This document shows, piece by piece, positions 4,823-31,354 of a stretch of 44,408 nt of DNA (position 1 is its first letter; each line of letters opens with the position of its first letter). Source of the DNA: Candidatus Scatosoma sp. (lineage in GTDB: Bacteria > Bacillota > Clostridia > Christensenellales > Borkfalkiaceae); contig JAZTWF010000026.1 of assembly GCA_045635725.1 (NCBI GenBank), positions 1 through 44,408 on the forward strand, in the 5' to 3' direction. The notes below the pieces were generated by a model. It saw only the letters and a program-made list of their open reading frames with translations. It did no database searches and was not told the origin of the DNA. The translations under genes were made by a program, and so were the position numbers.

Positions 4823-5869
4823 TTATTCCGCGTCTTGTTCTACGCTTTCTTCCACGTTCTTTGTCGCCGCTTTCGCTGCGCGTTTTGCCGCAAGCTGTTT
4901 TCCATACGTTGCGTTTTCCAAAGCCTTTTTATCCGCCGCGCCTTTGAAAAGCGAGTACAGAGCAGGCACGTAGAAGAGTGCAACCGCCGTCACTGCGATA
5001 AGCGCGATAAGCGCCGCAAGAGCAAACCATCTCGTCGACCACGTTGCCACCGCGCCCACAAGCACAAGCGCAACGCCCGTTACTGCTGCAAACGACAAAA
5101 TTTCTTTGCACGCAACCGAATTTTCCGCAAGCTCTTGCGCGGATTGTTCTTCTTCCGCCTGCAAGCTTGCGCGGACCTTATTCAAGGTGAGCAAAGTAAG
5201 CACAGCCGTAACCATTGCCGCGATAGCCGCGATATACAGCGTGGAGTTGGTTACGGGGATACGGGTAAGCAAAATAACTGCCATGGAAAGCGCGCCGCCG
5301 ACAAACGTTGCAATTCCGGCAACCGCGCCGCTGATCAAGCCGTAACGGATAGCGGTATACGCAAATGCGAGTACGGCAATCACCGCAACCGCGATGCTTG
5401 CGCGGACAACGTACGAACAAGGCCAGTTGGCAAGCAACGTTTCCGATGCGGAAGTTACCGTAATGAATACGATATCGTCTTTCCAAGCGCCGTTTTCTAC
5501 GTCCGTTTTGTTTTCAAAAGTAGCTTGGAGCGCCGTTTTCGCCGCGTTTACCTTCTTTTGCGTTTCTTCCCCTGCGGAAAATACGTAGACAAGCTCTCTA
5601 TTATCGCCGATAAGGGAAGTCATATTATAGCTGTCGGAAATGCCTTGCTTGGTAAATTCCGCTTCGCAAACCGCTTTGATATCGTCTTCGTGCGTGGTAT
5701 AGAACGTTTTATTGACGGTAACCGTCAAGGTGTTCGCGTCCGAAAGGGTTGCCGCGTACGATACGCCGAATATAGCGGAAACGACTACGGACAACGCGAT
5801 AACCACCGCCAAGATAATGGACAGGAGAATGCCTTTGTTTGCCGTTTTGGAAATGAGCTTATTCATCAT
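4823..5869 (-). CDS. secF: SecF-like protein-export membrane protein (divergent)
   Basis: 348 aa. Topology is TM1, an extracytoplasmic domain, then 5 TM. Overlaps the secD stop by 11 nt. Synteny yajC...secD-secF-recJ. GAGGAGGA SD. Classic SecF sequence motifs not recognised by eye. Confidence 0.65.
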   Translation of the reverse strand: MMNKLISKTANKGILLSIILAVVIALSVVVSAIFGVSYAATLSDANTLTVTVNKTFYTTHEDDIKAVCEAEFTKQGISDSYNMTSLIGDNRELVYVFSAGEETQKKVNAAKTALQATFENKTDVENGAWKDDIVFITVTSASETLLANWPCSYVVRASIAVAVIAVLAFAYTAIRYGLISGAVAGIATFVGGALSMAVILLTRIPVTNSTLYIAAIAAMVTAVLTLLTLNKVRASLQAEEEQSAQELAENSVACKEILSFAAVTGVALVLVGAVATWSTRWFALAALIALIAVTAVALFYVPALYSLFKGAADKKALENATYGKQLAAKRAAKAATKNVEESVEQDAE

Positions 5870-7439: not shown

Positions 7440-8771
7440 TTATTGCATTTTCGCCATTTTTTTGACGGCTAAAATATGCATAGCGCACTCCACGCGTTTT
7501 TTCATCATAGCGCACGTCGTTTCGTACGGGTCGTTAATGTCGCCGTTGAAGTGATAGTTATTCGCGCTGCAACCGCCCGAACAAACGAATTTCGCAAAGC
7601 AATCTTCGCATTTTTTACGCGTGAATAAGCACGAATTTTTGAACAGTTCTCTCGTGTCTTTGCGCGTAATGCCTTCGTATACGCTGCCCATGCGGAATTT
7701 TTCGTCCCCTGCAAATTGATGGCAGGGATACAAATCGCCGTTGGGCGTAACCGAAAAATATTCGTTGCCCGCCCCGCAAGCGGATACGCGTTTGGAAAGA
7801 CAAGGTCCGCCTTCCAAATCGATATTGAAATGGAAGAAATTAAACCCTTTCCCTTCGGCATGGCGCGCAAGGTATGCTTCGCATAAGTTTTCGTATTCCT
7901 TCTCGATTTCGGGAATATGCTTGTTTGTAATTTGCAAATCGGGAATGTCCGTTACGACGGGTTCCATGGAAATGGAATCCACCCCCTGATCGGCAATAAA
8001 GAGCACGTCCTTTGCAAAGTCTAAATTTTTCGCCGTGAACGTACCGCGCACGTAGTAGCTCTTTTCCCCGCGCAGAGAAATGAATTTTTTGATTTTGTCG
8101 ATAATCAAATCGAACGTGCCTTTGCCGTTTATCGTCTTACGAATGGCGTCGTGCACTTCCTTTCTGCCGTCCAAGGATAAAACGACGTTTTCCATTTCTT
8201 CGTTGAAAAACGCTATCGTTTCGTCGTTGAGAAGAAGAGCGTTGGTCGTGGTGGTAAACAGGAATTTCTTTCCCACCTTCGCGCCGCGTTCTTTGGCGTA
8301 GTACACCGTTTGCTTCAAAACGTCCAAATTCATCAGCGGTTCGCCGCCGAAAAAGTCCATTTCCAAAACCTTGCGTTTACCGCTGTTTTCGATAAGAAAA
8401 TCTACCGCTTTTTTGGCGGTTTCCAAACTCATGCTTTCGCGCTTGGAATGGTATGCCCCTTCGTCGGCAAAGCAGTAGCGACAGCGGAAGTTGCAATCGT
8501 GACAAATGTGGATACAAAGCGCCTTGACTTCGTCCGATTTCATGGGATAGCTTTTGACTTCTTCTTTGAAAAGAAGACCTTGCTCTTTCAAGCTTTCCAC
8601 GTCGGAAAGAATTTCCTTGATTTGTTCGTCCGTGATATAGGTGATATCGACGGCTTGTCCTTCTTCCTTGGCTTTAAGATAATCCGCCGTGGGGGTGTCG
8701 CATTCGTGCAAAGAACCGCTGCCCACGTCGTAAATGTAATTGTGATCTTTATAACTGAAAACGTGTATCAA
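7440..8771 (-). CDS. scfB: SCIFF radical SAM/SPASM maturase (ranthipeptide thioether synthase)
   Basis: 443 aa. CX3CX2C (CNFRCRYC) radical SAM cluster. C-terminal SPASM cysteines (CGAGNEYFSVTPNGDLYPC, CEDCFAKFVCSGGC). Immediately downstream of a SCIFF precursor. Start codon is TTG (caa at 8769-8771) with AGGAG 7 nt upstream. Confidence 0.9.
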   Translation of the reverse strand: MIHVFSYKDHNYIYDVGSGSLHECDTPTADYLKAKEEGQAVDITYITDEQIKEILSDVESLKEQGLLFKEEVKSYPMKSDEVKALCIHICHDCNFRCRYCFADEGAYHSKRESMSLETAKKAVDFLIENSGKRKVLEMDFFGGEPLMNLDVLKQTVYYAKERGAKVGKKFLFTTTTNALLLNDETIAFFNEEMENVVLSLDGRKEVHDAIRKTINGKGTFDLIIDKIKKFISLRGEKSYYVRGTFTAKNLDFAKDVLFIADQGVDSISMEPVVTDIPDLQITNKHIPEIEKEYENLCEAYLARHAEGKGFNFFHFNIDLEGGPCLSKRVSACGAGNEYFSVTPNGDLYPCHQFAGDEKFRMGSVYEGITRKDTRELFKNSCLFTRKKCEDCFAKFVCSGGCSANNYHFNGDINDPYETTCAMMKKRVECAMHILAVKKMAKMQ

Positions 8772-8865: not shown

Positions 8866-9018
8866 TTATTTGCGTTCGATTTTATCTTCGCGCGTGATTC
8901 TTTCGCAGGACTGATTGCCTACCGTGCAGCTGGTTTTGCAAGCCGATTGACAGGTGCTTCTGCATTCGCCGCAAGCCGTTACTTTCTTTTCGGTGGGTTT
9001 TGCAATGGTCTTAATCAT
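8866..9018 (-). CDS. scfA: SCIFF six-cysteine ranthipeptide precursor
   Basis: 50 aa from ATG 9018 (AGGAGAA SD 8-9 nt upstream): MIKTIAKPTEKKVTACGECRSTCQSACKTSCTVGNQSCERITREDKIERK. Contains the near-invariant SCIFF core CGECxxSCQSACKTSCTVGNQSC. Confidence 0.92.
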   Translation of the reverse strand: MIKTIAKPTEKKVTACGECRSTCQSACKTSCTVGNQSCERITREDKIERK

Positions 9019-10024: not shown

Positions 10025-10053
10025 ATGATATCCCTTTTTGGAAAAATTTGCAA
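10025..10053 (-). promoter_or_regulatory. Candidate sigma-A promoter for yajC
   Basis: Minus strand TTGCAA-17 nt-TATCAT, about 45 nt upstream of the ATG. Leader hairpin atcggc-tta-gccgat. Confidence 0.45.
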
Positions 10054-10120: not shown

Positions 10121-10280
10121 GTGCGGTAAGATTGAAACGTTGCCCGTTTGAAAAGGGAAAAACGGTTCAAATACAAGTAAATCAAGCAAAAGGAGTATTT
10201 TCGCCGTGAGCGTACTTGGCGTACGTAAGCAAGAAAAGCGGACTTTGACGCAGTATTGCGCCGTATTTCAACCGTTTTTT
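10121..10280. repeat. Intergenic structured repeat, copy B (unit 10158-10280 plus shared 12-mer 10122-10133)
   Basis: Closing stem 10161-10174/10264-10277, extendable by AAA/TTT to 17 bp, with one C:C mismatch. Internal hairpin 10211-10215/10221-10225. Homologous to 101-281. Confidence 0.65.
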
Positions 10281-11871
10281 ATAAGGCTTCGAATAATACC
10301 GTTCCGCGCTTATAAACCCACCCCCACAGCAGGGCGGTAACAGCTAAGAACAAACAGCTAACCAACGCCAAATACAGTTCTGCGTATAAGTATTTCCCAA
10401 AGAGAAAATGTCCGCCGATAACAAGCAAGGATACCCCCCAGCAAGCGAACATGGCAAGCACTACGGAAAAGCTTTGCTTGACCGCCACCACTTCATTCGT
10501 CCATTTTAAGTTGGGCATTTTCAAATTGATAACCAGCCCCAGCGTAGCGCAAAGCAGGGTAATGCAAATTAGCGTTACTATCGCGCAAACCGCCATAAGC
10601 ACGGGGATTTTGAGCAGCACGCAAATCAGCACGGTTACAGGCACTAACGGAATAAGCGTATACGCCACGTGAAACGCCGTTTTCGCGCCGAAGATTTCCA
10701 TAGCCGATACGGGCATAGAACGGAGCAACCATAAATTTTGCCCTTCCAACGATATCGACGACGCGGTGATGATATTCGACGCGGCGATAAAGCATAAAAT
10801 TACCGTTAGGATAATCGCCACTTCCCCTTTATAGATAGGCGCGTGCGCAATGGTAGCGCAAAGCTCGCCGTTAAACAGCGCAAACCCTGCGAACACCACG
10901 CCGATTACCGAACCGATACCACAGTTAAAAAGAATCATGGGGTTCTTCAAATAACGGTTACATTCCTTGAAAAAGATAGCCCAAACCGCACTGCGCGATT
11001 TGCTTTGCTTTTCCACGTATTTGGCTTTCGCACCGCTCTTTTTCATGGTAGCGGTTTTCAAAAACGTTACCGAAAGGAGCAAATACGTCAAAGCGAATAC
11101 GCCGACAAAAAGCAAGAAAAAGATAAGCATACCGACGATATCGCCAGCAGCGCCCAAGCCCATTTGACGAAAGACAAACAGCAACGGATTTTCAAAGCCC
11201 TGCGCAAGCGCGTCCCCGTTTGCCATAATAAAGGTAAGCACTTCGTTCATGTTGGAAACCAACACGGCATAACCGATAAAAAAGGCAATCAAAAGCACCG
11301 TGGTGATCAAATTTTTCGCAGGCAAGCGTGCCGTTAAAACGGCAATCAGCCAACCCAGCAAACAACTCACCGCCAATACGCCAAGCGGCAATAAAAGGGT
11401 AATTAATGCGCAAAAAATCAAGGGTAAAACGCTAAACGCCGTCAGCGTAAAATAGCGCACGATACACGGGATAAAAACGATAGACGTAAACAAAAACGCC
11501 ATAACGTATAAGGCAGTCATACGCACAAACAGCAAGACTTTGGGCGGTATGGGCATAGACAAAAGCAGGTCGTTATCCTTGGCTTCGTATAAAATAGACT
11601 TGGTCATAAATATACTGCCGATTAAGCCCGTACCGAACGCAAGCGTACCCATAAACGCAAAGTACACCCACGGCTTGCCTATGGCAAGCATACCTTGACA
11701 CATACTCTCGGAAAGCATCCACATTAAATACACCATAGCCCCAAGCGCGTACAGCATAAGGATACCCACCAAAATAAGCGTACCCGTTTTGCGTTGTTTC
11801 TTCTCTCCGCTACGGAAAGCAAATACCGACAAAAGCTCGGCAAACTGTTTTTTAAGTAAGGCTTTCAGCAT
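10279..11871 (-). CDS. ABC-2-type exporter permease, uncharacterised (about 12 TM)
   Basis: 530 aa polytopic membrane protein. Its start overlaps the stop of the upstream ABC ATPase by 20 nt. Confidence 0.7.
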   Translation of the reverse strand: MLKALLKKQFAELLSVFAFRSGEKKQRKTGTLILVGILMLYALGAMVYLMWMLSESMCQGMLAIGKPWVYFAFMGTLAFGTGLIGSIFMTKSILYEAKDNDLLLSMPIPPKVLLFVRMTALYVMAFLFTSIVFIPCIVRYFTLTAFSVLPLIFCALITLLLPLGVLAVSCLLGWLIAVLTARLPAKNLITTVLLIAFFIGYAVLVSNMNEVLTFIMANGDALAQGFENPLLFVFRQMGLGAAGDIVGMLIFFLLFVGVFALTYLLLSVTFLKTATMKKSGAKAKYVEKQSKSRSAVWAIFFKECNRYLKNPMILFNCGIGSVIGVVFAGFALFNGELCATIAHAPIYKGEVAIILTVILCFIAASNIITASSISLEGQNLWLLRSMPVSAMEIFGAKTAFHVAYTLIPLVPVTVLICVLLKIPVLMAVCAIVTLICITLLCATLGLVINLKMPNLKWTNEVVAVKQSFSVVLAMFACWGVSLLVIGGHFLFGKYLYAELYLALVSCLFLAVTALLWGWVYKRGTVLFEAL

Positions 11872-12577
11872 GGTCGTTCTCCAACTCTAAAAATACTTCT
11901 TCTAAGCTGTCGTCCCCTTTCACTTCATCCATGGTACCCGCTTTTATCAATTTTCCGCCCTTGATAATGGCTACCTTATCGCACAGCTTTTCCGCCACTT
12001 CCAACACGTGGGTAGAGAAAAAGATAGCTCCGCCCTGTTTGCAAAACTCACGCATAATTTCCTTGAGCGTGTGCGCCGCTTTGGGGTCTAAACCCACGAA
12101 CGGTTCATCCATTAAAATGAGCTTCGGCTCGTGGATCAGCGCGGAGATAACGGCAAGCTTTTGTTTCATACCGTGAGAATACGCCGCAATCGGCTGCGCC
12201 AAATCTTGCGTTAAGTTAAACGCGTCGGCGTAGTGACGGATTCTTTCCTGCCGCTCGTCTGCCGATACGCCGTAAATATCCGCTACGAAATGCAAGTACT
12301 GTATGCCCGTCATAAAGGTGTACAAATCGGGATTGTCGGGAATGTACGCCAACATTTTTTTGCAGGCGATAGGGTCTTTGGCAACGGATACGCCGTCAAT
12401 GCGAATTTCCCCCTTTTCAAACTGCAAAATACCGCAAACGGCTTTCAGCGTCGTCGTTTTCCCTGCGCCGTTGTGCCCGATAAACCCGAAAATTTCCCCC
12501 TTTTGAATATGCAAGGATAAATCGTCTACGGCATTCTTATTGCCGTACGTTTTGGTAAGATTTGTAATTTGTAACAT
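11852..12577 (-). CDS. ABC transporter ATP-binding protein (ABC-2/DrrA-NatA-like)
   Basis: Walker A GHNGAGKTTT, Q-loop, signature SHGMKQK, Walker B LILMDEP. Start set to the second ATG (12577), which has a GGGAGAAAAGG SD; the first ATG (12592) has none. Confidence 0.9.
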   Translation of the reverse strand: MLQITNLTKTYGNKNAVDDLSLHIQKGEIFGFIGHNGAGKTTTLKAVCGILQFEKGEIRIDGVSVAKDPIACKKMLAYIPDNPDLYTFMTGIQYLHFVADIYGVSADERQERIRHYADAFNLTQDLAQPIAAYSHGMKQKLAVISALIHEPKLILMDEPFVGLDPKAAHTLKEIMREFCKQGGAIFFSTHVLEVAEKLCDKVAIIKGGKLIKAGTMDEVKGDDSLEEVFLELENDHAESLT

Positions 12578-16490: not shown

Positions 16491-17310
16491 ATTTTTCGAA
16501 ATTTTCTTTTAAGGCAAGGTATTCGTTTAAGATATCGTCAAAGCAGGTATAGCGGAACAGCTTATGCACCCTGTCCACGTGCCATTGTTTGACGTTTTCG
16601 GTGTGCGGATAGGGCAGGTAAAACAGCCGTTTGGAAAAATGCCGCACCACCGTCTTTTTGTAGAGAAATTTTTGGTCGTTAAACCGTTGGGATATGATTT
16701 TCTTTTTCGTCGTCGAACGGATCAGCGCCGATTGATCGGCAAAGAGCAGTTTTTTTCTTCTAATGTGCGCCCTTGCCTTCTCAAAAATCCCCGTTTCGCG
16801 GCAAAGTTTCATGTTAAACAATAACACCCCTGCGTTGATATAATTTGGGTAGAGTAAAAACTTTCCGTAGTGATCTCTTGCGGCGGCGTATTCCACCTGC
16901 GAAACGTCGATATCGTACAACAAAGAAATATCCTTATGCAGCATAATATCCGCGTCTAAATACAACAGCTTATCGGGCAGTTCCACCAAATCGGCAAGCA
17001 AGCGCAGCAGCGTATACGGCGAACAATAGCACCCTTCGTTGGGGCTTTGCTTTAAGTGCGTTTCATATAAATCCGTTACGTCGTAAAGCAAAACCTTGGT
17101 GTCCGCATTGTGCTTTTGTAACGCATTTTCAATAAACGCCCTGTGTTTTTCCTGCATAGCCGTATACGCAGGCTTCACGCGCGTAAGCTCCATGGTAAAT
17201 ATATAAATGCGCAAAGGCTTGGGCGTTTGCATACGCATAACGATAGACAGCGCGGAAGTGAGCACGCCGTCGAACACTTTATCGTTTCCGCAATATAATA
17301 CGTTGATCAT
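16489..17310 (-). CDS. Glycosyltransferase family 8 protein
   Basis: 273 aa. N-terminal INVLYCGNDKVFDG... and DxD (YLDADIM), typical of GT8 (GspA/LgtC-like). ATGA overlap with the upstream gene. Confidence 0.8.
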   Translation of the reverse strand: MINVLYCGNDKVFDGVLTSALSIVMRMQTPKPLRIYIFTMELTRVKPAYTAMQEKHRAFIENALQKHNADTKVLLYDVTDLYETHLKQSPNEGCYCSPYTLLRLLADLVELPDKLLYLDADIMLHKDISLLYDIDVSQVEYAAARDHYGKFLLYPNYINAGVLLFNMKLCRETGIFEKARAHIRRKKLLFADQSALIRSTTKKKIISQRFNDQKFLYKKTVVRHFSKRLFYLPYPHTENVKQWHVDRVHKLFRYTCFDDILNEYLALKENFEK

Positions 17311-18098
17311 TCTTCTTGCTCCTTGGGTCGATAGGCGATATATTCGCAGCTTGACAGGGCGGCGCGGCTACGCATGGTTTCATATACTCTATCGCGCAAG
17401 CGTTGCGCCTGTTCTTTAACAGGCAAATCCCTATCGGGATAAAACGGTCCGTCCAGATAGGTAACCGCCTTGGGCTTTATCCCCCGTTTGCGTTTTTGGT
17501 AGGTAGTCGTCATGACAAAGCACGGCGCGTTATATTCGACGGGATAGCGAAAGGACTTCGCGGAAAAATTACGAATGCCGATATAGTACGGCCAAATATG
17601 CGCTTCGGGATAGATAGTGATACAATGCCCTTGGGCATAGCGCAAAGCAATCGCCGCCTTGAAGTTTTTTGCCGCTTGCAGGGTATCGGGCAGGGGCAAC
17701 GCGCCCATGTACGGGGTTATCTTGCCCATAACGGGCATGGAAACGTTGTTGGCGTGGGCGATTATTGAAACTTTTTTGGGCATACAAACAAGGGACGGGA
17801 TAAAGACGTCCGCCGTTTCCTGCGTGTGGTTGGCGAATAAAAAATATCCCCCTTTTACGGTTTTGAGTACTTTACGGTTTTCCACTTTCCATTTAAGCTT
17901 GCATTTACAATACAGCCACGCAAGCGGCGTCGCAATCAGGCGATAGCAAATAAAACGGGCAATCCGCCCGAAAAAGCCGTCGCGGATATAGCGATAGCTG
18001 CCGTCGATTTTTTTCGGGATAATAACCGCCGACGAAAATTCGTCGGCGGTTTCATTCGTGTAGTATTCCGTTTTAACGGGTAATCTTTTTTCTTGCAT
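17307..18098 (-). CDS. Lysophospholipid/glycerolipid acyltransferase (PlsC/LPLAT-like)
   Basis: About 263 aa. Acyltransferase-like NHTQETAD block and IYPEAHIW block. ATG 18098 lies 1 nt after the stop of the ABC gene; an alternative TTG at 18113 would overlap that gene. Confidence 0.6.
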   Translation of the reverse strand: MQEKRLPVKTEYYTNETADEFSSAVIIPKKIDGSYRYIRDGFFGRIARFICYRLIATPLAWLYCKCKLKWKVENRKVLKTVKGGYFLFANHTQETADVFIPSLVCMPKKVSIIAHANNVSMPVMGKITPYMGALPLPDTLQAAKNFKAAIALRYAQGHCITIYPEAHIWPYYIGIRNFSAKSFRYPVEYNAPCFVMTTTYQKRKRGIKPKAVTYLDGPFYPDRDLPVKEQAQRLRDRVYETMRSRAALSSCEYIAYRPKEQEE

Positions 18099-18099
18099 A

Positions 18100-20082
18100 T
18101 TATTCCAGCTCAAACGCGCCCGTGTACAGTTGATAGTACGTGCCCTTTTGCTCTAACAGCTGTTCGTGCGTGCCGCGTTCGATAATCTTACCGTGGTCAA
18201 GCACCATAATCGCATCCGAATTACGAACGGTGGAAAGTCGGTGCGCAATCACGAATACCGTTCTACCGTGCATGAGTTTATCCATACCGTCCTGCACAAG
18301 CGCTTCGGTGCGGGTGTCGATAGACGACGTCGCTTCGTCCAAAATCATCACGGGCGTATCCGCTACTTCCGCGCGCGCGATAGAAAGCAGCTGTCTTTGA
18401 CCCTGCGAAAGGTTAGACCCGTTGTTGGTCAAAAGCGTATCGTACCCGTCGGGCAAACGGCGGATAAAGTCGTCCGCGTTGGCAAGCTTTGCCGCCGCAA
18501 TACATTCTTCGTCCGTAGCGTCCAAACGCCCGTAACGGATATTTTCCATAACCGTACCCGTAAACAGGTTGGTATCCTGCAAAACAATACCCAAAGAACG
18601 GCGTAAATCGCTCTTTTTGATTTTATTGATATTGATACCGTCGTAACGGATTTTTCCGTCGGCGATATCGTAGAAACGGTTGATAAGGTTGGTAACCGTC
18701 GTTTTTCCTGCGCCCGTCGCGCCGACAAACGCAATTTGTTGACCGGGTTTTGCGTACAGTGAAACGTTGGTGAGTACCTGCTTTTCGGGTACGTAGCCAA
18801 AGTCTACGTTTTCCAAAACGATATCCCCTTTGAGCTGCGTATACGTCGTGGTGTTATCCGATTTATGGTAATGTTTCCAAGCCCACAATCCCGTACGCTC
18901 TTCCGTTTCGGAAAGCGTGCCGTCTTCGTTACGCTTGGCATGGACAAGAGTAACGTACCCTTCGTCCTTTTCCGATTCTTCGTCCATCAGCGTAAACGCG
19001 CGGCTTGCCCCTGCAAGGCCCATGGCAATCATGGATACCTGTTGGGACATTTGGTTGACGATTTGCGTGAAGTTTCTTGACAAACCAAGGAAAGCCACAA
19101 TCGTACCGATAGACAGCGTTTCCACACCGAAAAAGATACTCGATATCCCGATATTCTTTGCGCCTAAGGTGTACAGCATACCCCCGAATACCGCCAAAAG
19201 CACGTAATTGAAGTTACCGATATTAGCAAGGATAGGGCCTAAAATATTCCCGAATTTATGGGCGCGTTGCCCGTCGCGGAACAGCTGCTGGTTGACCGTA
19301 TCAAAATCTGCCTTCGCGCGTTCTTCGTGCGTAAAGACCTTGACGACCTTTTGCCCTTTCATCATTTCTTCGACAAAGCCTTCCAGCTTTGCGATAGAAG
19401 CTTGTTGCGCCACCATGGACTTAGCGCTGTTTCCGCCGATAATTTTCACGACAAGCGTCATTGCCACCGTACAAATCAACACGACGGCAAACAGCCAAAG
19501 GCTGTTCCACAGCATAAACCCTACGGACGCGATCAGCGTAATCGAGCTGGAAAACAGCGTAGGCAAGCTTTGCCCGATAAGCTGTCTACAAGCGTCGGTA
19601 TCGTTGGTGTACGTACTCATGATATCGCCGTGCGCGTGCGTGTCGAAATACTTAATGGGCAGGGTTTGCATTTTTGCAAACATATCCTTACGCAAATGAT
19701 ACAGCATACCCTGCGTAACGGTTGCCATAATTCTATGCCAAAAGAACCCTGCGATAATGACGGTGAGATATACCCCCGACATGGTGAGCACGATACCAAG
19801 CAGCGTACCGGCAACGGCGTCAAAACCTTTCTCTACGCCGGGCGTAATAACGTCGTCGATAAGCGATTGCACGAATACCGACGAAACCAAGCTGCCCATG
19901 GCGTTGACGATAATGCAAAGGAATACAAGTAGCATTTGCCATTTATAGTACTTAAATACCGTTTTGAGCAATCTTCCCAGCGTTCCTTTTTTAATTGCGC
20001 CTTTGGGTACGGGCATCCCCCCGCCGCCGCGCATAGGACGAATAGGACGGGGTTTTTGTTGATAGCCTTTTTCTTCGGACAT
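18100..20082 (-). CDS. Heterodimeric ABC exporter subunit, BmrD/LmrD-like (TMD-NBD, consensus catalytic site)
   Basis: 660 aa, 6 TM plus NBD. Walker A GATGAGKTT, Walker B MILDEATS (catalytic Glu present), signature degenerate (LSQGQRQ). Long linker insertion before the NBD. Confidence 0.88.
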   Translation of the reverse strand: MSEEKGYQQKPRPIRPMRGGGGMPVPKGAIKKGTLGRLLKTVFKYYKWQMLLVFLCIIVNAMGSLVSSVFVQSLIDDVITPGVEKGFDAVAGTLLGIVLTMSGVYLTVIIAGFFWHRIMATVTQGMLYHLRKDMFAKMQTLPIKYFDTHAHGDIMSTYTNDTDACRQLIGQSLPTLFSSSITLIASVGFMLWNSLWLFAVVLICTVAMTLVVKIIGGNSAKSMVAQQASIAKLEGFVEEMMKGQKVVKVFTHEERAKADFDTVNQQLFRDGQRAHKFGNILGPILANIGNFNYVLLAVFGGMLYTLGAKNIGISSIFFGVETLSIGTIVAFLGLSRNFTQIVNQMSQQVSMIAMGLAGASRAFTLMDEESEKDEGYVTLVHAKRNEDGTLSETEERTGLWAWKHYHKSDNTTTYTQLKGDIVLENVDFGYVPEKQVLTNVSLYAKPGQQIAFVGATGAGKTTVTNLINRFYDIADGKIRYDGININKIKKSDLRRSLGIVLQDTNLFTGTVMENIRYGRLDATDEECIAAAKLANADDFIRRLPDGYDTLLTNNGSNLSQGQRQLLSIARAEVADTPVMILDEATSSIDTRTEALVQDGMDKLMHGRTVFVIAHRLSTVRNSDAIMVLDHGKIIERGTHEQLLEQKGTYYQLYTGAFELE

Positions 20083-21860
20083 TACGCTTCACCCCCTTCC
20101 GTTTTCACCGCGCGGCTCTTCGTCTGCGCGTCGTAGATTTCTCTATAAATTTCGCTTGTTTGCAAAAGCTCTTCGTGGTTTCCGCAAGCCAAAATTTTAC
20201 CGCCGTCTAAAACGATAATCTTATCGGCGTGTTCCACCGACGCAATACGCTGTGCGATAATAATCTTCGTCGTATCGGGGATTTCCTGCGCAAACGCACG
20301 GCGAATCAGCGCGTCCGTCTTGGTATCTACCGCGCTGGTGCTGTCGTCCAAAATCAATACCTTGGGCTTTCTAAGCAATGCGCGCCCAATACAAAGACGT
20401 TGCTTTTGTCCGCCCGAAACGTTTGTACCGCCCTGTTCGATATACGTATCGTAGCCGTCGGGGAATGCCCGCACAAATTCGTCGGCTTGCCCCAACTGGC
20501 ACACGCGCACAAGCTCTCCGTCCGTGGCGTTTTCGTCGCCCCAACGCAGGTTTTCCTTAATCGTACCCGAAAAGAGTACGTTCTTTTGCAAGACGATAGA
20601 AACTTCTTTTCTAAGCGCGTTCAAATCGTAATCCTTTACGTTGACGCCGCCCACGTACACGTTCCCTTCCGTCGTGTCGTACAAACGGGGAATGAGTTGG
20701 ATAAGCGTGGTTTTCGACGAACCCGTTGCACCTAAAACCCCCACCGTTTCCCCTGCGTTTATCGTCAAATGGATATCCGAAAGCGCGTATTTTTCCGCTT
20801 TTTCGGAATACTTAAAGCAAACGTTTTCAAAATGGATTGAACCGTCCTTGACCTCCGTAACGCCGTTTTCGGGACTGACGATATCCGACTCTTTGGTCAA
20901 CACTTCGCTGATACGGCGCGCCGATTCAAACGACATGGTAATCATAACGAATACCATAGAGAACATCATACAGCAAGAGAGCACTTGTATGCCGTAAGTA
21001 ATGAGTGCGGATAATTCGGTGGGCGTAAAGTCGCCGCTGAGCGTGCCCGATTGAATAATTACCGTTGCGCCAAGATAGGAAATCAGCACCGCCGCCGCAT
21101 TGATAAAGAAGGTCATAATGGGGTTGTTGAGCGCAAGAATTTTTTCCGCCCTTGTGAAATCGTTTCGCACTTCGCTTGCCGCTTTATCGAATTTTTCCGT
21201 TTCGTATTGTTCACGGACGAACGATTTGACAACGCGAATACCCCCTACGTTTTCCTGTACGGAATTGTTCAACGCGTCGTACTTTTTGAAAATACGCTTG
21301 AAAAAGGGCATCACCACGCGCATAATGGCAATTAAGCAAAGTGCCAAAAGGGGCATAATCAAGACGAAAATCCATGCAAGACTTGCATTGATTGTAAAGC
21401 TCATGATAATGGCGAAAATAAACTGCAACGGTACGCGGATTGCGATACGCAAGCACATTTGATAGGACTGTCGCACGTTAGCGACGTCGGTGGTTAAACG
21501 GGTAACCAAAGACGACGCGGAAAATTCGTCTACGTTGGCAAACGAAAATTTTTGCACCTTATAAAAAAGGTCGTGGCGTAAATTGCTGGCAAAACCGCAG
21601 CTTGCCGTTGCGGCAAACTGTCCTGCCAAAACACCGCTCATAATCGAAAAACAGGCAAGCAAAAGTAAAATACCGCCGTACGTTAAAACGTGCGTCATTG
21701 CGCCCTCTTGCGCCAACACTTCCTGATTGATCATCTGCGCCATGAAAAAGGGAATCAGACATTCGCACAGGGCTTCCAGCGCCATAAAAAGGGGCGTAAT
21801 GATAGACGGTTTTTTATATTGCCTTACGCTTTTGAGTAAAGGTTTAATCGTCTTTACCAT
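20082..21860 (-). CDS. Heterodimeric ABC exporter subunit, BmrC/LmrC-like (TMD-NBD, degenerate Walker B)
   Basis: 592 aa. Walker A GATGSSKTT, signature VSGGQKQR, Walker B LILDDSTS (Asp replaces the catalytic Glu). TAATG overlap with the partner gene. Confidence 0.88.
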   Translation of the reverse strand: MVKTIKPLLKSVRQYKKPSIITPLFMALEALCECLIPFFMAQMINQEVLAQEGAMTHVLTYGGILLLLACFSIMSGVLAGQFAATASCGFASNLRHDLFYKVQKFSFANVDEFSASSLVTRLTTDVANVRQSYQMCLRIAIRVPLQFIFAIIMSFTINASLAWIFVLIMPLLALCLIAIMRVVMPFFKRIFKKYDALNNSVQENVGGIRVVKSFVREQYETEKFDKAASEVRNDFTRAEKILALNNPIMTFFINAAAVLISYLGATVIIQSGTLSGDFTPTELSALITYGIQVLSCCMMFSMVFVMITMSFESARRISEVLTKESDIVSPENGVTEVKDGSIHFENVCFKYSEKAEKYALSDIHLTINAGETVGVLGATGSSKTTLIQLIPRLYDTTEGNVYVGGVNVKDYDLNALRKEVSIVLQKNVLFSGTIKENLRWGDENATDGELVRVCQLGQADEFVRAFPDGYDTYIEQGGTNVSGGQKQRLCIGRALLRKPKVLILDDSTSAVDTKTDALIRRAFAQEIPDTTKIIIAQRIASVEHADKIIVLDGGKILACGNHEELLQTSEIYREIYDAQTKSRAVKTEGGEA

Positions 21861-21897
21861 CGGTTGATTTCAAACTCCTTAGATTAAGTATATTGTC

Positions 21898-21926
21898 ATT
21901 ATAATACTTTGAAAAAATAATGTCAA
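21898..21926 (-). promoter_or_regulatory. Consensus sigma-A promoter for the ABC-ABC-acyltransferase-GT8 unit
   Basis: Minus strand TTGACA-17 nt-TATAAT. AAGGAG SD at 21875-21880. Confidence 0.75.
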
Positions 21927-21939
21927 ACGCTCAAACGCA

Positions 21940-21988
21940 AAAATGCGGACTTTCACCGCATTTTCATTTTACAGCCCCTTTGGGGCTG
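21940..21988 (-). terminator. Tandem hairpins terminating the SbcE-like gene
   Basis: cagcccc-ttt-ggggctg (21972-21988) directly after the stop, then aaaatgcgg-actttca-ccgcatttt (21940-21964) with a U-run on the minus strand. Confidence 0.7.
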
Positions 21989-21990
21989 GG

Positions 21991-24225
21991 TTAGAGCATT
22001 CGCTCTTGCTTGCAAGTGCAATAGACGATTTGTCTATCCTTAGAAAGCGTTTTTAACAGCTTTTTGCCAAGCTCCGTCTTCCGATCGTCCAAATCGGTAA
22101 ACGGATCGTCAAGCACAAGCAAAGGTTTTTCGCCCGTGAACATACAATCCGCCAAGGCAAGCCGAATACAAAAATCCCAAAGTCCGCGCAAGCCCTTGCT
22201 GTAATAGTCCGTTTCCTTGAGAATACCCCGTTCTTCGGCGTACGGCATTCCGTCGGCGGAAAAACGCACGCTTTTGTCTATCCCCATTGCCAAAACGTAC
22301 CGTTTACACCCTTCTTCCACGGGCGTGAGATAGCGCGCCGCCAAGTTATGTCTTGCACGAATAATCAATTCTTTTGCCGTTTGAACGGCAAACAAACGTT
22401 TTTCCAGCCGCGCCTTTTCCGCCGTGCATTCCGCTTCTTCGGCGCAATACGCCCCGTCCTTTGCCGCTTGCAGCTGTGCTTCTTCGCGCTTTGCCGCATA
22501 GTACGCTTTGCTTTCCGACGCCGCCCGTTTGTCGCTGTCCAGCGTAGCTTTTTTGCGCCTGAGCGCAAGATATTCGTCTTCGCTAACGCTTTCCGATTGC
22601 GTAGGTTCTTCGCCAAACGCCGCAAGCTGCGTTTTCGCCGAAACAACTTCTTTTGTCAGCGCGGCGTGGTTTTCCACGTTTTCTTGCAGAGTGCAAAGCG
22701 CGGAGCGGTAGTCGTACGTTTGCGCAAAAGCAAAGTTTTGCAAAAAGGCTTGTATCGCCTTATTTAGCGCCTGCAAACGCTCCGTTTGCCCCGTACGTTC
22801 GTCTTTTAACGGTGTAAATTCCTTTTCTCTTTCGCAAAGGCGTTGGTATTTTTCCTGCGCCGCCGCATGTTCGGCTTTTGCACGTTCGTATTCTTCGTTT
22901 AACGTCTTATCGGCAAACGCGTTAGTAGTTTTCGGCGTATGCGAAAAGGCGTTTTTCCAAAAGCAGCGCATACTGATAAGCGCGCCCAAGCCGCCGACGC
23001 CCGTAAAGCCCCAACCAAGGGCAGGGTCTACGTTTAATTGCGATATCCCGATAAGGAGCGCGCCCAAAAACAAACAAATGGCAATGAGTGCATACCCCAT
23101 GCGTTTGCCCTTACGTTTTTTTCCTTCTTTTTTCTCACGGGCGTCCTCCCCTTTTGCTTTGCGCTGCTGCGCCTGTGAAAGCATACGGAAGGTATCTATC
23201 GTCTTTTCGCAAGCGGCAAGTTCGCTAAGCGCACGTTCCTTTTCCGCGGTCAGCGTTTGCAGCTCCGTCCAACGGCTTTGCAGCCGTTCTTCTTCCGCCT
23301 TAAGGGTATAATATTCGTCTACCGCCGTGCGAATACCTGCCAAATTGACCGTTTCGGGCGTGGTTTGTCCGAAAAACGTATTCAACGCCGCTAAGCGGCT
23401 TTCCGATTGCGTAACGCGGTTTTGCAACTGTTCGTACGCAAGCCTGTTTGCCGCGCGTTCTTTGCGGCGTTCGTATTCGGAAAGCGCCTTTTCCGTTTGC
23501 GCATACCCTTCTTCTGCGGAAAGCAAATCGGCAACCGCTTGCTTTTCCTTTTGCGCATAGCTTGCGGAAAGCTCCGCCGCGCGAGCGGCTTCGGCGCGCA
23601 GGGTGGTCAGCTGAGATAATCTTGCGTCTATCTCATCCAGCTTGCCCTTATACGGCGCGCGTTTAGAGCGCAGCTCCCTTTCCGCCTTTTCCAAAATAGC
23701 AACGGCGTCCGTTTCCCCGTCCGTTTGCCTATTGGACGTAAGCAAAGCGGTCAGTTTGCCCTTGATATCGTCGGTAAACGCGCCCGCGGGGATTTCCCCT
23801 TGCGGAAGATATACGCTACGGCGATAGCTTTCTCTATCCACCCCAAACAGCGTTTCGCCCAAACGCTCTGCCCGTTCGCCGAACAGGGCGGTGGGGAAGT
23901 TGTTCGTATCGTATACCTTGGACATATCCTGCGACGGTTTTTCGCCGAATACCCGTTCCACGCGGTAGGTGGTATTTTGATAGAGAAAGGTGAGCGTTCC
24001 GCCGAACACACCCCCTTGGAAGGGGCGGTATTTCACGCGGAAATTTTCTTCTACCGCGCGTTTACGGCTTTCGTCCATGCCGTAAAACATACACTCTAAA
24101 AAGTCAACGAAGGTGGTTTTTCCCCAACCGTTGTCCTGCTTGATTTGCACGATATCCTGCGAAAGATCAAATTTTTTATCGTAAAAACAGCCAAAGCCCG
24201 AAATATGCGCGGAAAGTATTCTCAT
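21991..24225 (-). CDS. SMC/SbcC-like AAA ATPase (SbcE/YhaN-like) with a central transmembrane hairpin
   Basis: 744 aa. N-terminal Walker A (DNGWGKTTF), long Ala/Glu/Lys/Arg-rich coiled-coil-like segments, C-terminal Walker B (LLVLDDPFTDLD). Two hydrophobic helices at aa 376-423. ATGA overlap with the upstream nuclease gene. Confidence 0.75.
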   Translation of the reverse strand: MRILSAHISGFGCFYDKKFDLSQDIVQIKQDNGWGKTTFVDFLECMFYGMDESRKRAVEENFRVKYRPFQGGVFGGTLTFLYQNTTYRVERVFGEKPSQDMSKVYDTNNFPTALFGERAERLGETLFGVDRESYRRSVYLPQGEIPAGAFTDDIKGKLTALLTSNRQTDGETDAVAILEKAERELRSKRAPYKGKLDEIDARLSQLTTLRAEAARAAELSASYAQKEKQAVADLLSAEEGYAQTEKALSEYERRKERAANRLAYEQLQNRVTQSESRLAALNTFFGQTTPETVNLAGIRTAVDEYYTLKAEEERLQSRWTELQTLTAEKERALSELAACEKTIDTFRMLSQAQQRKAKGEDAREKKEGKKRKGKRMGYALIAICLFLGALLIGISQLNVDPALGWGFTGVGGLGALISMRCFWKNAFSHTPKTTNAFADKTLNEEYERAKAEHAAAQEKYQRLCEREKEFTPLKDERTGQTERLQALNKAIQAFLQNFAFAQTYDYRSALCTLQENVENHAALTKEVVSAKTQLAAFGEEPTQSESVSEDEYLALRRKKATLDSDKRAASESKAYYAAKREEAQLQAAKDGAYCAEEAECTAEKARLEKRLFAVQTAKELIIRARHNLAARYLTPVEEGCKRYVLAMGIDKSVRFSADGMPYAEERGILKETDYYSKGLRGLWDFCIRLALADCMFTGEKPLLVLDDPFTDLDDRKTELGKKLLKTLSKDRQIVYCTCKQERML

Positions 24226-28036: not shown

Positions 28037-28135
28037 ATTCGTACACTCCTTATTTTTTCGTTCGTTATATTTGTAAACGCTTTGCGGAAAAATTAAACGT
28101 TTGTTTGCAACTTTTCGTAAAATCTTATTTTTTGG

Positions 28136-28166
28136 CGCAAAAAAACGCTCCGTTTTAGGAGCGTTT
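28136..28166 (-). terminator. Intrinsic terminator after the zinc-ribbon gene (end of the cls unit)
   Basis: aaacgctcc-gtttta-ggagcgttt with a U-run on the minus strand. Confidence 0.75.
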
Positions 28167-30964: not shown

Positions 30965-30997
30965 ACACCCGACGCCCTTTCGTCGGGTGTTTTGCTT
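30965..30997 (+). terminator. Intrinsic terminator after rbr
   Basis: acacccgacg-cccttt-cgtcgggtgt followed by tttgctt. Confidence 0.75.
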
Positions 30998-31000
30998 ATG

Positions 31001-31030
31001 TATAAAAATACCCGACTGTTCGTCGGGTAT
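31001..31030 (-). terminator. Intrinsic terminator after trxA (usable on both strands)
   Basis: atacccgac-tgttc-gtcgggtat flanked by A/T runs on both sides. Confidence 0.7.
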
Positions 31031-31036
31031 CCTTTT

Positions 31037-31354
31037 TTATAAATTGTTTTCGACAAAGGCTTGCAGCGCTTCGGCAGGGACAAAGCCCAAATTATTCGCC
31101 GCCACTTTTCCGTCCTTAAAAATAAGCACGTTGGGAATGGACGAAATGCCGTACTGGATTGCCGCCGCTTCTTCTTCGTCGACGTTGACCTTGACAAATC
31201 TCGCCTTATCCCCTATCTTTTGGGCTACCGCTTCAAACGCAGGTGCAAGCATTCTACAAGGTCCGCACCAGCTTGCCCAAAAATCGCATACCACGGGTAC
31301 GGGAGACTCGGCAATAAGCTGTTCTAACTGTTGACTTGTTACGTGTTGTACCAT
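31037..31354 (-). CDS. trxA: Thioredoxin
   Basis: 105 aa from ATG 31354 (AAGGAGA SD). WCGPC active site. Confidence 0.92.
   Translation of the reverse strand: MVQHVTSQQLEQLIAESPVPVVCDFWASWCGPCRMLAPAFEAVAQKIGDKARFVKVNVDEEEAAAIQYGISSIPNVLIFKDGKVAANNLGFVPAEALQAFVENNL

Follow-up and report, generated by a model that had tools for sequence, protein, structure and literature searches.

The locus between the gene for an ABC permease and yajC raises the question of what kind of element a long hairpin placed directly beyond a stop codon might be. The window, by which we mean the whole 44,408-nt stretch of DNA analyzed, is a complete contig from a metagenome-assembled genome, and its housekeeping genes lie nearly all on the - strand, in the order tgt, ABC ATPase, 530-aa permease, copy B of the element, yajC, DUF3792, SCIFF, radical-SAM maturase, two unknown genes, recJ, relA and copy A of the element. 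This 44-kb contig was read together with loci of about 20 kb each from relatives, whose syntenic regions were reached via RelA homologues, the exact SCIFF peptide and SerS homologues; an exact-protein look-up returned no record for either the RelA or the permease of the window. Units of the element were located by a profile and later by a covariance model (R1), and the related DNA searched amounted to ~480 kb. The SCIFF peptide itself (50 aa, six cysteines; 8866-9018, - strand) adjoins the radical-SAM/SPASM maturase (7440-8771, - strand), and an identical peptide is encoded in at least 24 contigs from related strains and species.

Copy B, the ends of which were set by the covariance-model match, comprises the following features together with its immediate surroundings:

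10153-10284, + strand (the folded strand, antisense to the flanking genes): copy B, one full rod-repeat unit (R1 126.6 bits, E 3e-26)
10158-10174, + strand: 5' arm of the closing helix P1, AAAAACGGTTCAAATAC, with a conserved pyrimidine mismatch at C10168
10263-10279, + strand: 3' arm of P1, GTATTTCAACCGTTTTT, with the mismatch at C10269
10177-10192, + strand: GTA, TC, G and AAAG as 5' sides of the interior helices, plus the CAAG(G/C)A box, with partners at 10243-10259
10243-10259, + strand: 3' sides of the interior helices (CTTT, GA, C, GT, TGC)
10210-10226, + strand: apical hairpin (G)CGTAC-TTGGC-GTACG(T), of which two basal pairs covary (CG/UA and GC/UA/AU)
10122-10152, + strand: flank common to other loci
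10279-10281, - strand: stop codon TAA of the 530-aa ABC-type permease; the copy B unit starts 0 nt beyond it
10025-10053, - strand: sigma-70-like yajC promoter (TTGCAA-17-TATCAT), conserved in relatives without the repeat
9976: ATG of yajC

An earlier note on this DNA had placed the element at 10121-10280, an interval that covers it but includes ~30 nt of extra flank on one side and falls 4 nt short on the other. The closing stem described there is present as claimed, a 17-nt stem (10158-10174/10263-10279) that is 94% complementary with one C:C mismatch (10168/10269); the coordinates given for its 3' arm (10264-10277) were one base off, gtatttcaaccgtt occupying 10263-10276. The T-run of the 3' arm overlaps the complement of the permease stop codon, and the outer 8 P1 pairs covary across units. 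The hairpin cgtac-ttggc-gtacg lies at 10211-10225 as described, and a second interior hairpin, put at 4-6 bp, does exist in copy B but is only 4 bp long (cgca-gtat-tgcg, about 10249-10260). As a conserved part of the architecture the second hairpin had to be given up: it is specific to copy B and not kept in the other copies, and its bases pair across the rod in the family consensus. Within the flank, TGCGGTAAGATT recurs at 102-113 and thus stands beside both copies, GCCCGTTTGAAAAGGG also adjoins the unit of locus L085, and the flank can pair with the 5' arm of P1 (CCGTTT/AAACGG).

The second copy, claimed ~10 kb away at 101-281, was borne out as a full unit at the relA end of the window, where three features adjoin:

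155-288, + strand: copy A, one full unit immediately beyond the stop codon of relA (R1 129.9 bits)
118-153, + strand: partial unit beside copy A, consisting of the apical hairpin and GAGCAAGAAAAGC
282-284, - strand: relA stop codon, with copy A directly beyond

The closing stem of copy A is formed by 162-176/267-281, and the fold of this copy reached -44.0 kcal/mol on the + strand versus -34.7 kcal/mol on the - strand. Copies A and B are 71% identical, with a unit length of ~125-135 nt, while the neighboring fragment at 118-153 matches the center of copy B over 29 nt, save one R position. Two words common to both loci, a 19-mer and a 29-mer, are each present exactly two times in the window (0.01 and 0.00, respectively, expected by chance), and the second occurrence of the 29-mer, at 122-150, falls inside the partial unit.

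Comparison of the units replaced the picture of a closing stem around two independent hairpins with one continuous structure, and the whole unit is predicted to be a single imperfect rod of about eight short helices. P1 consists of 8 + 4-6 bp around the conserved pyrimidine·pyrimidine mismatch; four short interior helices follow, parted by conserved internal loops (CAAGGA / TTTGACG), and the rod is capped by the apical hairpin of 5-6 bp. Nine of 11 units have a tandem 5'-GA/5'-GA, for which copy B has C·A/A·G. The ends of every full unit are complementary over 14-17 nt, with the pairing kept and the sequence not; the outer arms vary and covary, and the interior boxes CAAGGA, TTTGAC and GTAC are conserved. 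Across the alignment 96.3% of cells pair, both sides have changed in 18 of 30 pairs (11-13 units), and the covariation score of 0.47 compares with 0.21 in shuffles, none of 500 reaching the observed value. Controls in which one side was slid by 1-3 columns gave 24-46% pairing, and the single-sequence folds beat those of shuffled sequences (z = -2.8 to -6.5). The compensatory substitutions reported between copies A and B were thus confirmed, and they are strong over the 13 units, so that the helices are preserved in the alignment of further copies.

Further copies were indeed found when they were counted in related genomes, bringing the total to 13 units, spread over about six lineages of related uncultured Clostridia. 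All 13 lie 0-5 nt past the stop codon of relA, serS or (in the window only) the ABC permease gene, and all are antisense to the flanking genes, an orientation that spans only three independent gene contexts and is not significant by itself. Units follow relA in the species of the window (L085, L086 and L088), in a species whose RelA is 89% identical (L089, L090 with two units, L092 and L093) and in a species in which hisS follows relA (L098-L102), and they follow serS in L108-L111; no unit was present after relA in L087 or L103-L107, nor after serS in L112-L119. Matches to R1 were confined to the relA, serS and permease 3' ends within the ~480 kb of related DNA, and the serS units of L108 and L110, left out of model building, nevertheless scored 96 bits. 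An exact 19-mer scan of one genome per species returned one true locus among 17, namely L013, a Clostridia metagenome-assembled genome from deer cecum with two tandem units and a remnant after serS. Phage and plasmid collections and viral contigs yielded no match, and in an exact-pattern scan of metagenomes 67 of 67 matches were due to chance, the divergence among units being too great for such a pattern to catch them.

The units turn over at these gene ends. Their number per site ranged from 1 to 2.5, with tandem, partial and chimeric forms, and similarity of the host strains did not carry over to the units: in L098 versus L099 relA DNA is 99.0% identical and the units 63%, and in the window versus L085 the corresponding values are 91.7% and 68%, the units belonging to different subtypes. 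In L098 and L099 the new or duplicated material adjoins the stop codon. Where the relA site is empty (L087, L104-L107), the gap to the next gene is 41 or 12 nt. The same-site, presumably orthologous units of L089 and L090 are 85% identical versus 67% for relA third codon positions, a degree of conservation that reflects either purifying selection or homogenization between copies. No direct repeat indicative of a target-site duplication flanks copies A and B or the units of L013, L089, L098 and L108, and no clean filled/empty pair was found for the rod-repeat family. Copies were seen at low density (two in the 44 kb of the window; one site in each locus of roughly 20 kb), and neither this density nor the 71% identity within the genome resembles a recent MITE burst. 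Copy B is itself an atypical member: it is chimeric, with ends from one subtype and a center from another, it is the sole full-length unit that folds better on the other strand, and it is absent from a same-species strain whose relA DNA is 92% identical. It was absent from both L085 and L097, which have another palindromic repeat at that site, and copy B was thereby shown to be a strain-specific extra copy at the junction of the ABC permease gene and yajC.

Several unrelated repeats were observed at or near the same junctions. In other strains of the species of the window, the gap between the permease gene and yajC is filled by a palindromic repeat, GTCATTCTGACGCGTAAGCGGAAGAATCC ... GATTCTTC..TCAGAATGAC, as one unit in L085 (2050-2250) and two tandem units in L097 (950-1350); L085 has a further piece of it downstream of its relA unit (12320-12365), and the GTCATTCTGACGCGTAAGCGGAAGAATCC repeat does not occur in the window. 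A ~215-nt repeat of GTGAATTG-hairpin modules stands between relA and a lactamase_B gene in L103 (12155-12368), flanked by the direct repeat AAGGAATAAAGT, a clear duplication unrelated to the rod repeat. Loci L104-L107, whose RelA protein is identical to that of L103, have an empty 12-nt junction where L103 has the GTGAATTG repeat and carry this repeat inverted between DUF3792 and SCIFF (L104 2790-3040). Part of the GTGAATTG repeat gave a sub-threshold match to the Rfam family Gut-1 (RF01706; 33.5 bits versus a gathering score of 50, E 0.005). Finally, a third tandem module of ~75 nt (...GATAGAYAAGACTRGMTGCAACGGNACGTTGC), which had no Rfam match, follows serS in L112-L119 (about 5295-5470), species without the rod repeat, and was also found between the rod repeat and hisS in L098 (12300-12470) and L099 (12250-12450).

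The two strands of the unit are not equivalent. In the orientation of the window, 21 G-T cells at 8 positions were counted versus 2 A-C cells, both of the latter in the truncated unit L090b. The consensus energy was -37.6 kcal/mol for the + strand versus -16.9 kcal/mol for the gene-sense strand, and the + strand was the more stable by 5-14 kcal/mol in seven of the eight full units, copy B being the exception. Folds computed with RNA parameters ranged from -35 to -62 kcal/mol versus -14 to -24 kcal/mol with DNA parameters, and these weak DNA-parameter folds barely differed between strands. Thus the G-T excess, the conserved tandem G·A and the better consensus and single-unit energies point to the + strand of the window, antisense to the flanking genes (the ABC permease gene and yajC at copy B), as the constrained strand. 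The predicted pairing pattern also looks more like that of RNA than of DNA, in which interior helices this short, containing G·U and tandem G·A, are far less stable. Judging by the skew at four-fold sites, the - strand, on which the genes are also encoded, is probably the leading strand. We considered a mutational origin of the G-T excess and rejected it, since deamination on the - strand would be expected to yield A-C on the + strand, not G-T. However, the position of dnaA, ~10 kb beyond window position 1, conflicts with the four-fold-site skew on the direction of replication. In L085 (about 17200-22133) and L087 (17990-21472), in the region 10-20 kb past the first position of the window, mnmG and dnaA are encoded on the opposite strand, convergent with the long gene run on the relA side and divergent from a recF-like gene, an arrangement that is unusual near a presumed origin.

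The GTG ORF of copy B is not conserved, as had been reported, and in several units one strand is closed by stops in each of its three frames; a protein-coding small ORF was rejected, given that the L098 unit has stops in six of six frames and that indels are not multiples of three. The earlier failure to match the element to a known family held up against Rfam, to which the window gave 0 matches at the gathering score, and E-value scans against Rfam 15 with both copies, and with the units of L013 and L098, returned nothing relevant. An attC site, 6S RNA, T-box and riboswitch were likewise rejected, with no core sites or model matches, a variable copy number and the wrong strand. Neither the window nor the loci fetched from relatives encode a transposase or integrase. 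Elsewhere in the window (30975-31045 and 28130-28165, - strand), short GC-rich terminator hairpins of the canonical type start at, or a few bases from, the stop codons of a thioredoxin-like gene (two in tandem) and a small zinc-ribbon gene, each stem being preceded by an A-run and followed by a T-run. Ordinary terminators here therefore also start at or near the stop codon, and the position of the unit is typical of gene-end hairpins in this contig.

We put at about even the chance that the units form a previously uncatalogued family of non-coding, rod-folding repeats of uncultured gut Clostridia, of the BOX/RUP/SPRITE/ERIC/Correia/REPIN kind; the repeats are probably non-autonomous. Among the options that the earlier note had left open (a small RNA, a cis-regulatory or processing element, a miniature mobile element), a mobile or interspersed repeat fits best, because of the swapping between near-identical strains, the tandem and partial units and the presence of other repeats at the same sites, and the small-RNA option is retained. 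Units would be copied or exchanged among a few gene-end hot spots, whether by a trans-acting enzyme or by recombination between copies, and the + strand hairpin may be what selection or the copying machinery sees. In place, a unit would be co-transcribed in reverse orientation within a 3' UTR or intercistronic RNA, where the weaker hairpin of that orientation, with its A/U runs, could attenuate read-through or stabilize the upstream mRNA as a side effect. For a mobile repeat, it is odd that the copies are few, diverged yet covarying, variable at their ends, without a duplication and structured on the non-mRNA strand. Variable terminal sequence with kept pairing is unusual for transposase-bound inverted repeats, and the conservation above the synonymous rate could mean a host function rather than selfish spread.

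It is rather unlikely that the units instead constitute a family of small-RNA or cis-antisense RNA genes, in which a ~130-nt rod RNA would be made from the + strand of the window, per unit or per array, would end at the closing helix and U-run at the complement of the neighbor's stop codon and would act either in trans or upon the convergent mRNA at its 3' end. Such RNA would agree with three features of the + strand (more G·U than A·C, a tandem sheared G·A, and internal-loop bases that are conserved), with the far stronger folds under RNA than under DNA parameters, and with the one same-site pair of units conserved above synonymous sites. The stem encloses ~90 nt. Among the 12 complete units, six carry five or six U right behind the closing helix when read on the + strand, and the number with at least five U is four to six according to which strand is read; copy A, L085 and L013b have no such run. 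Furthermore, no sigma-70-like + strand promoter and no upstream motif conserved across loci was found, the arrays of L089 and L108 are only ~30-45 nt away from the start codon of the next gene, tandem units are too close together for promoters of their own, and replacement or absence between near-identical strains is unlike a housekeeping small RNA. A host gene-end module, that is, an oversized bidirectional terminator-like hairpin or insulator that terminates or attenuates transcription, or protects the 3' end of the upstream mRNA, and blocks antisense transcription into the gene, seems quite improbable to us. The placement 0-5 nt past the stop codon in all three gene contexts, the A-run and T-run that flank the closing helix in many units, the layout shared with the ordinary terminators of the window (stop, A-run, hairpin, T-run) and the precedent of the pneumococcal SPRITE repeat (PMC3049150) all suit that module, whereas the wobble and mismatch pattern favors the strand opposite the mRNA. 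The gap between relA and the next gene is 12-41 nt without a unit and the next gene in L089 has no room for a promoter of its own, so that efficient termination would be harmful; at the serS loci, moreover, canonical small terminators already follow the units. The judgment that the element is not a simple terminator probably holds; the simple terminator scan found none in the units, several of which lack a U-run.

We regard as very improbable a single-stranded-DNA recombination or transposition site resembling attC, IS200/IS605 or REP hairpins, even though recognition by a strand-specific recombinase or HUH enzyme would explain insertion beside stop codons. The fold is specific to one strand, the complement of the coding strand, the closing-helix mismatch is conserved, units of ~125 nt form arrays and conserve structure while the sequence varies, and the new or duplicated material in L098 and L099 sits beside the stop codon, all as such a site would have it. 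The RYYYAAC/GTTRRRY cores of attC are, however, absent from the ends, which read AAAAACGG.../...CCGTTTTT or GGACGRC.../...GYCGTCC; the flanks are syntenic housekeeping genes (tgt, yajC, recJ, relA and serS are core genes) rather than cassettes; no locus holds an integrase or Y1 transposase; with DNA parameters the fold is weak and nearly the same for both strands; and, judging by the skew, the folded + strand would be the template of the leading strand rather than the exposed template of the lagging strand. A broader proposition, that the rods are no passive repeats but a strand-specific structured RNA or single-stranded-DNA substrate, antisense to housekeeping genes such as relA and serS and abutting their stop codons, with units inserted and swapped at fixed gene ends by some enzyme, we hold to be decidedly unlikely; if true, Firmicutes would possess an antisense RNA system, or a mobile element that targets gene ends, with an attC- or REPIN-like geometry but unrelated to either.

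The reading as a family of non-coding, rod-folding repeats places the units beside known systems. Hairpin repeats with compensatory changes, tandem clusters and enrichment at gene 3' ends have been described (PMC3116915; PMC3049150). The BOX, RUP and SPRITE repeats of Streptococcus pneumoniae are non-coding, modular and roughly 100-200 nt long, with a tight fold and paired ends; they are enriched just downstream of coding sequences in an orientation that follows coding bias and are thought to act via RNA structure when co-transcribed (PMC3049150). The rod repeat is likewise non-coding and modular, with paired ends and a variable unit content, and is found in Firmicutes at gene 3' ends; unlike those repeats, with which it shares no sequence similarity, it occupies very few sites, its copies are 63-85% identical yet covarying, it folds better antisense to the genes, and no matching IS element is known. 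REPINs are REP doublets that form hairpins and are mobilized by RAYT transposases (PMC3116915). The rod repeat resembles them as a long imperfect extragenic hairpin (~70-110+ nt) with compensatory changes, tandem clusters that include flank, and long persistence at fixed sites, but a REPIN has conserved REP ends and a variable spacer whereas the rod repeat has variable ends and conserved interior boxes. REPINs, furthermore, number hundreds per genome, mainly in Proteobacteria, together with a RAYT gene. The ERIC sequences of enterobacteria are imperfect palindromes of ~127 bp, and these and the Correia elements of Neisseria have orientation-dependent effects on neighboring mRNAs via RNase E or RNase III. 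They share with the rod repeat a similar size, an imperfect palindrome and an intergenic, usually transcribed location; they belong to another phylum, differ in sequence and insert in both orientations with a TA duplication, whereas the rod repeat was seen in one orientation and without a duplication. Integron attC sites, for example the ~125-nt VCR repeats, also lie directly after stop codons, fold on the strand complementary to the coding strand, and conserve structure more than sequence as well as the imperfections of the helix; in the rod repeat, by contrast, there are no R/L cores and no integrase, the neighbors are core syntenic genes, and a chain of short helices takes the place of a near-continuous stem. 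With classical MITEs the rod repeat has complementary ends and presence/absence polymorphism in common, but not the target-site duplication.

The element is real, structured, non-coding and outside the known families, and it is most likely a new family within a familiar class of repeats. With its covariance model, this family adds annotation for abundant and poorly studied ruminant-gut Clostridia, in which gaps of 130-400 nt such as these are otherwise left blank or given spurious ORFs by annotators, and it is useful as a strain marker. The junctions after relA and serS and upstream of yajC emerge as recurrent landing sites for at least four unrelated palindromic repeats. The family also raises the question of what selects the hairpins of interspersed repeats, since the covariation here is unusually clean, strand-specific and on the strand that is not the mRNA.
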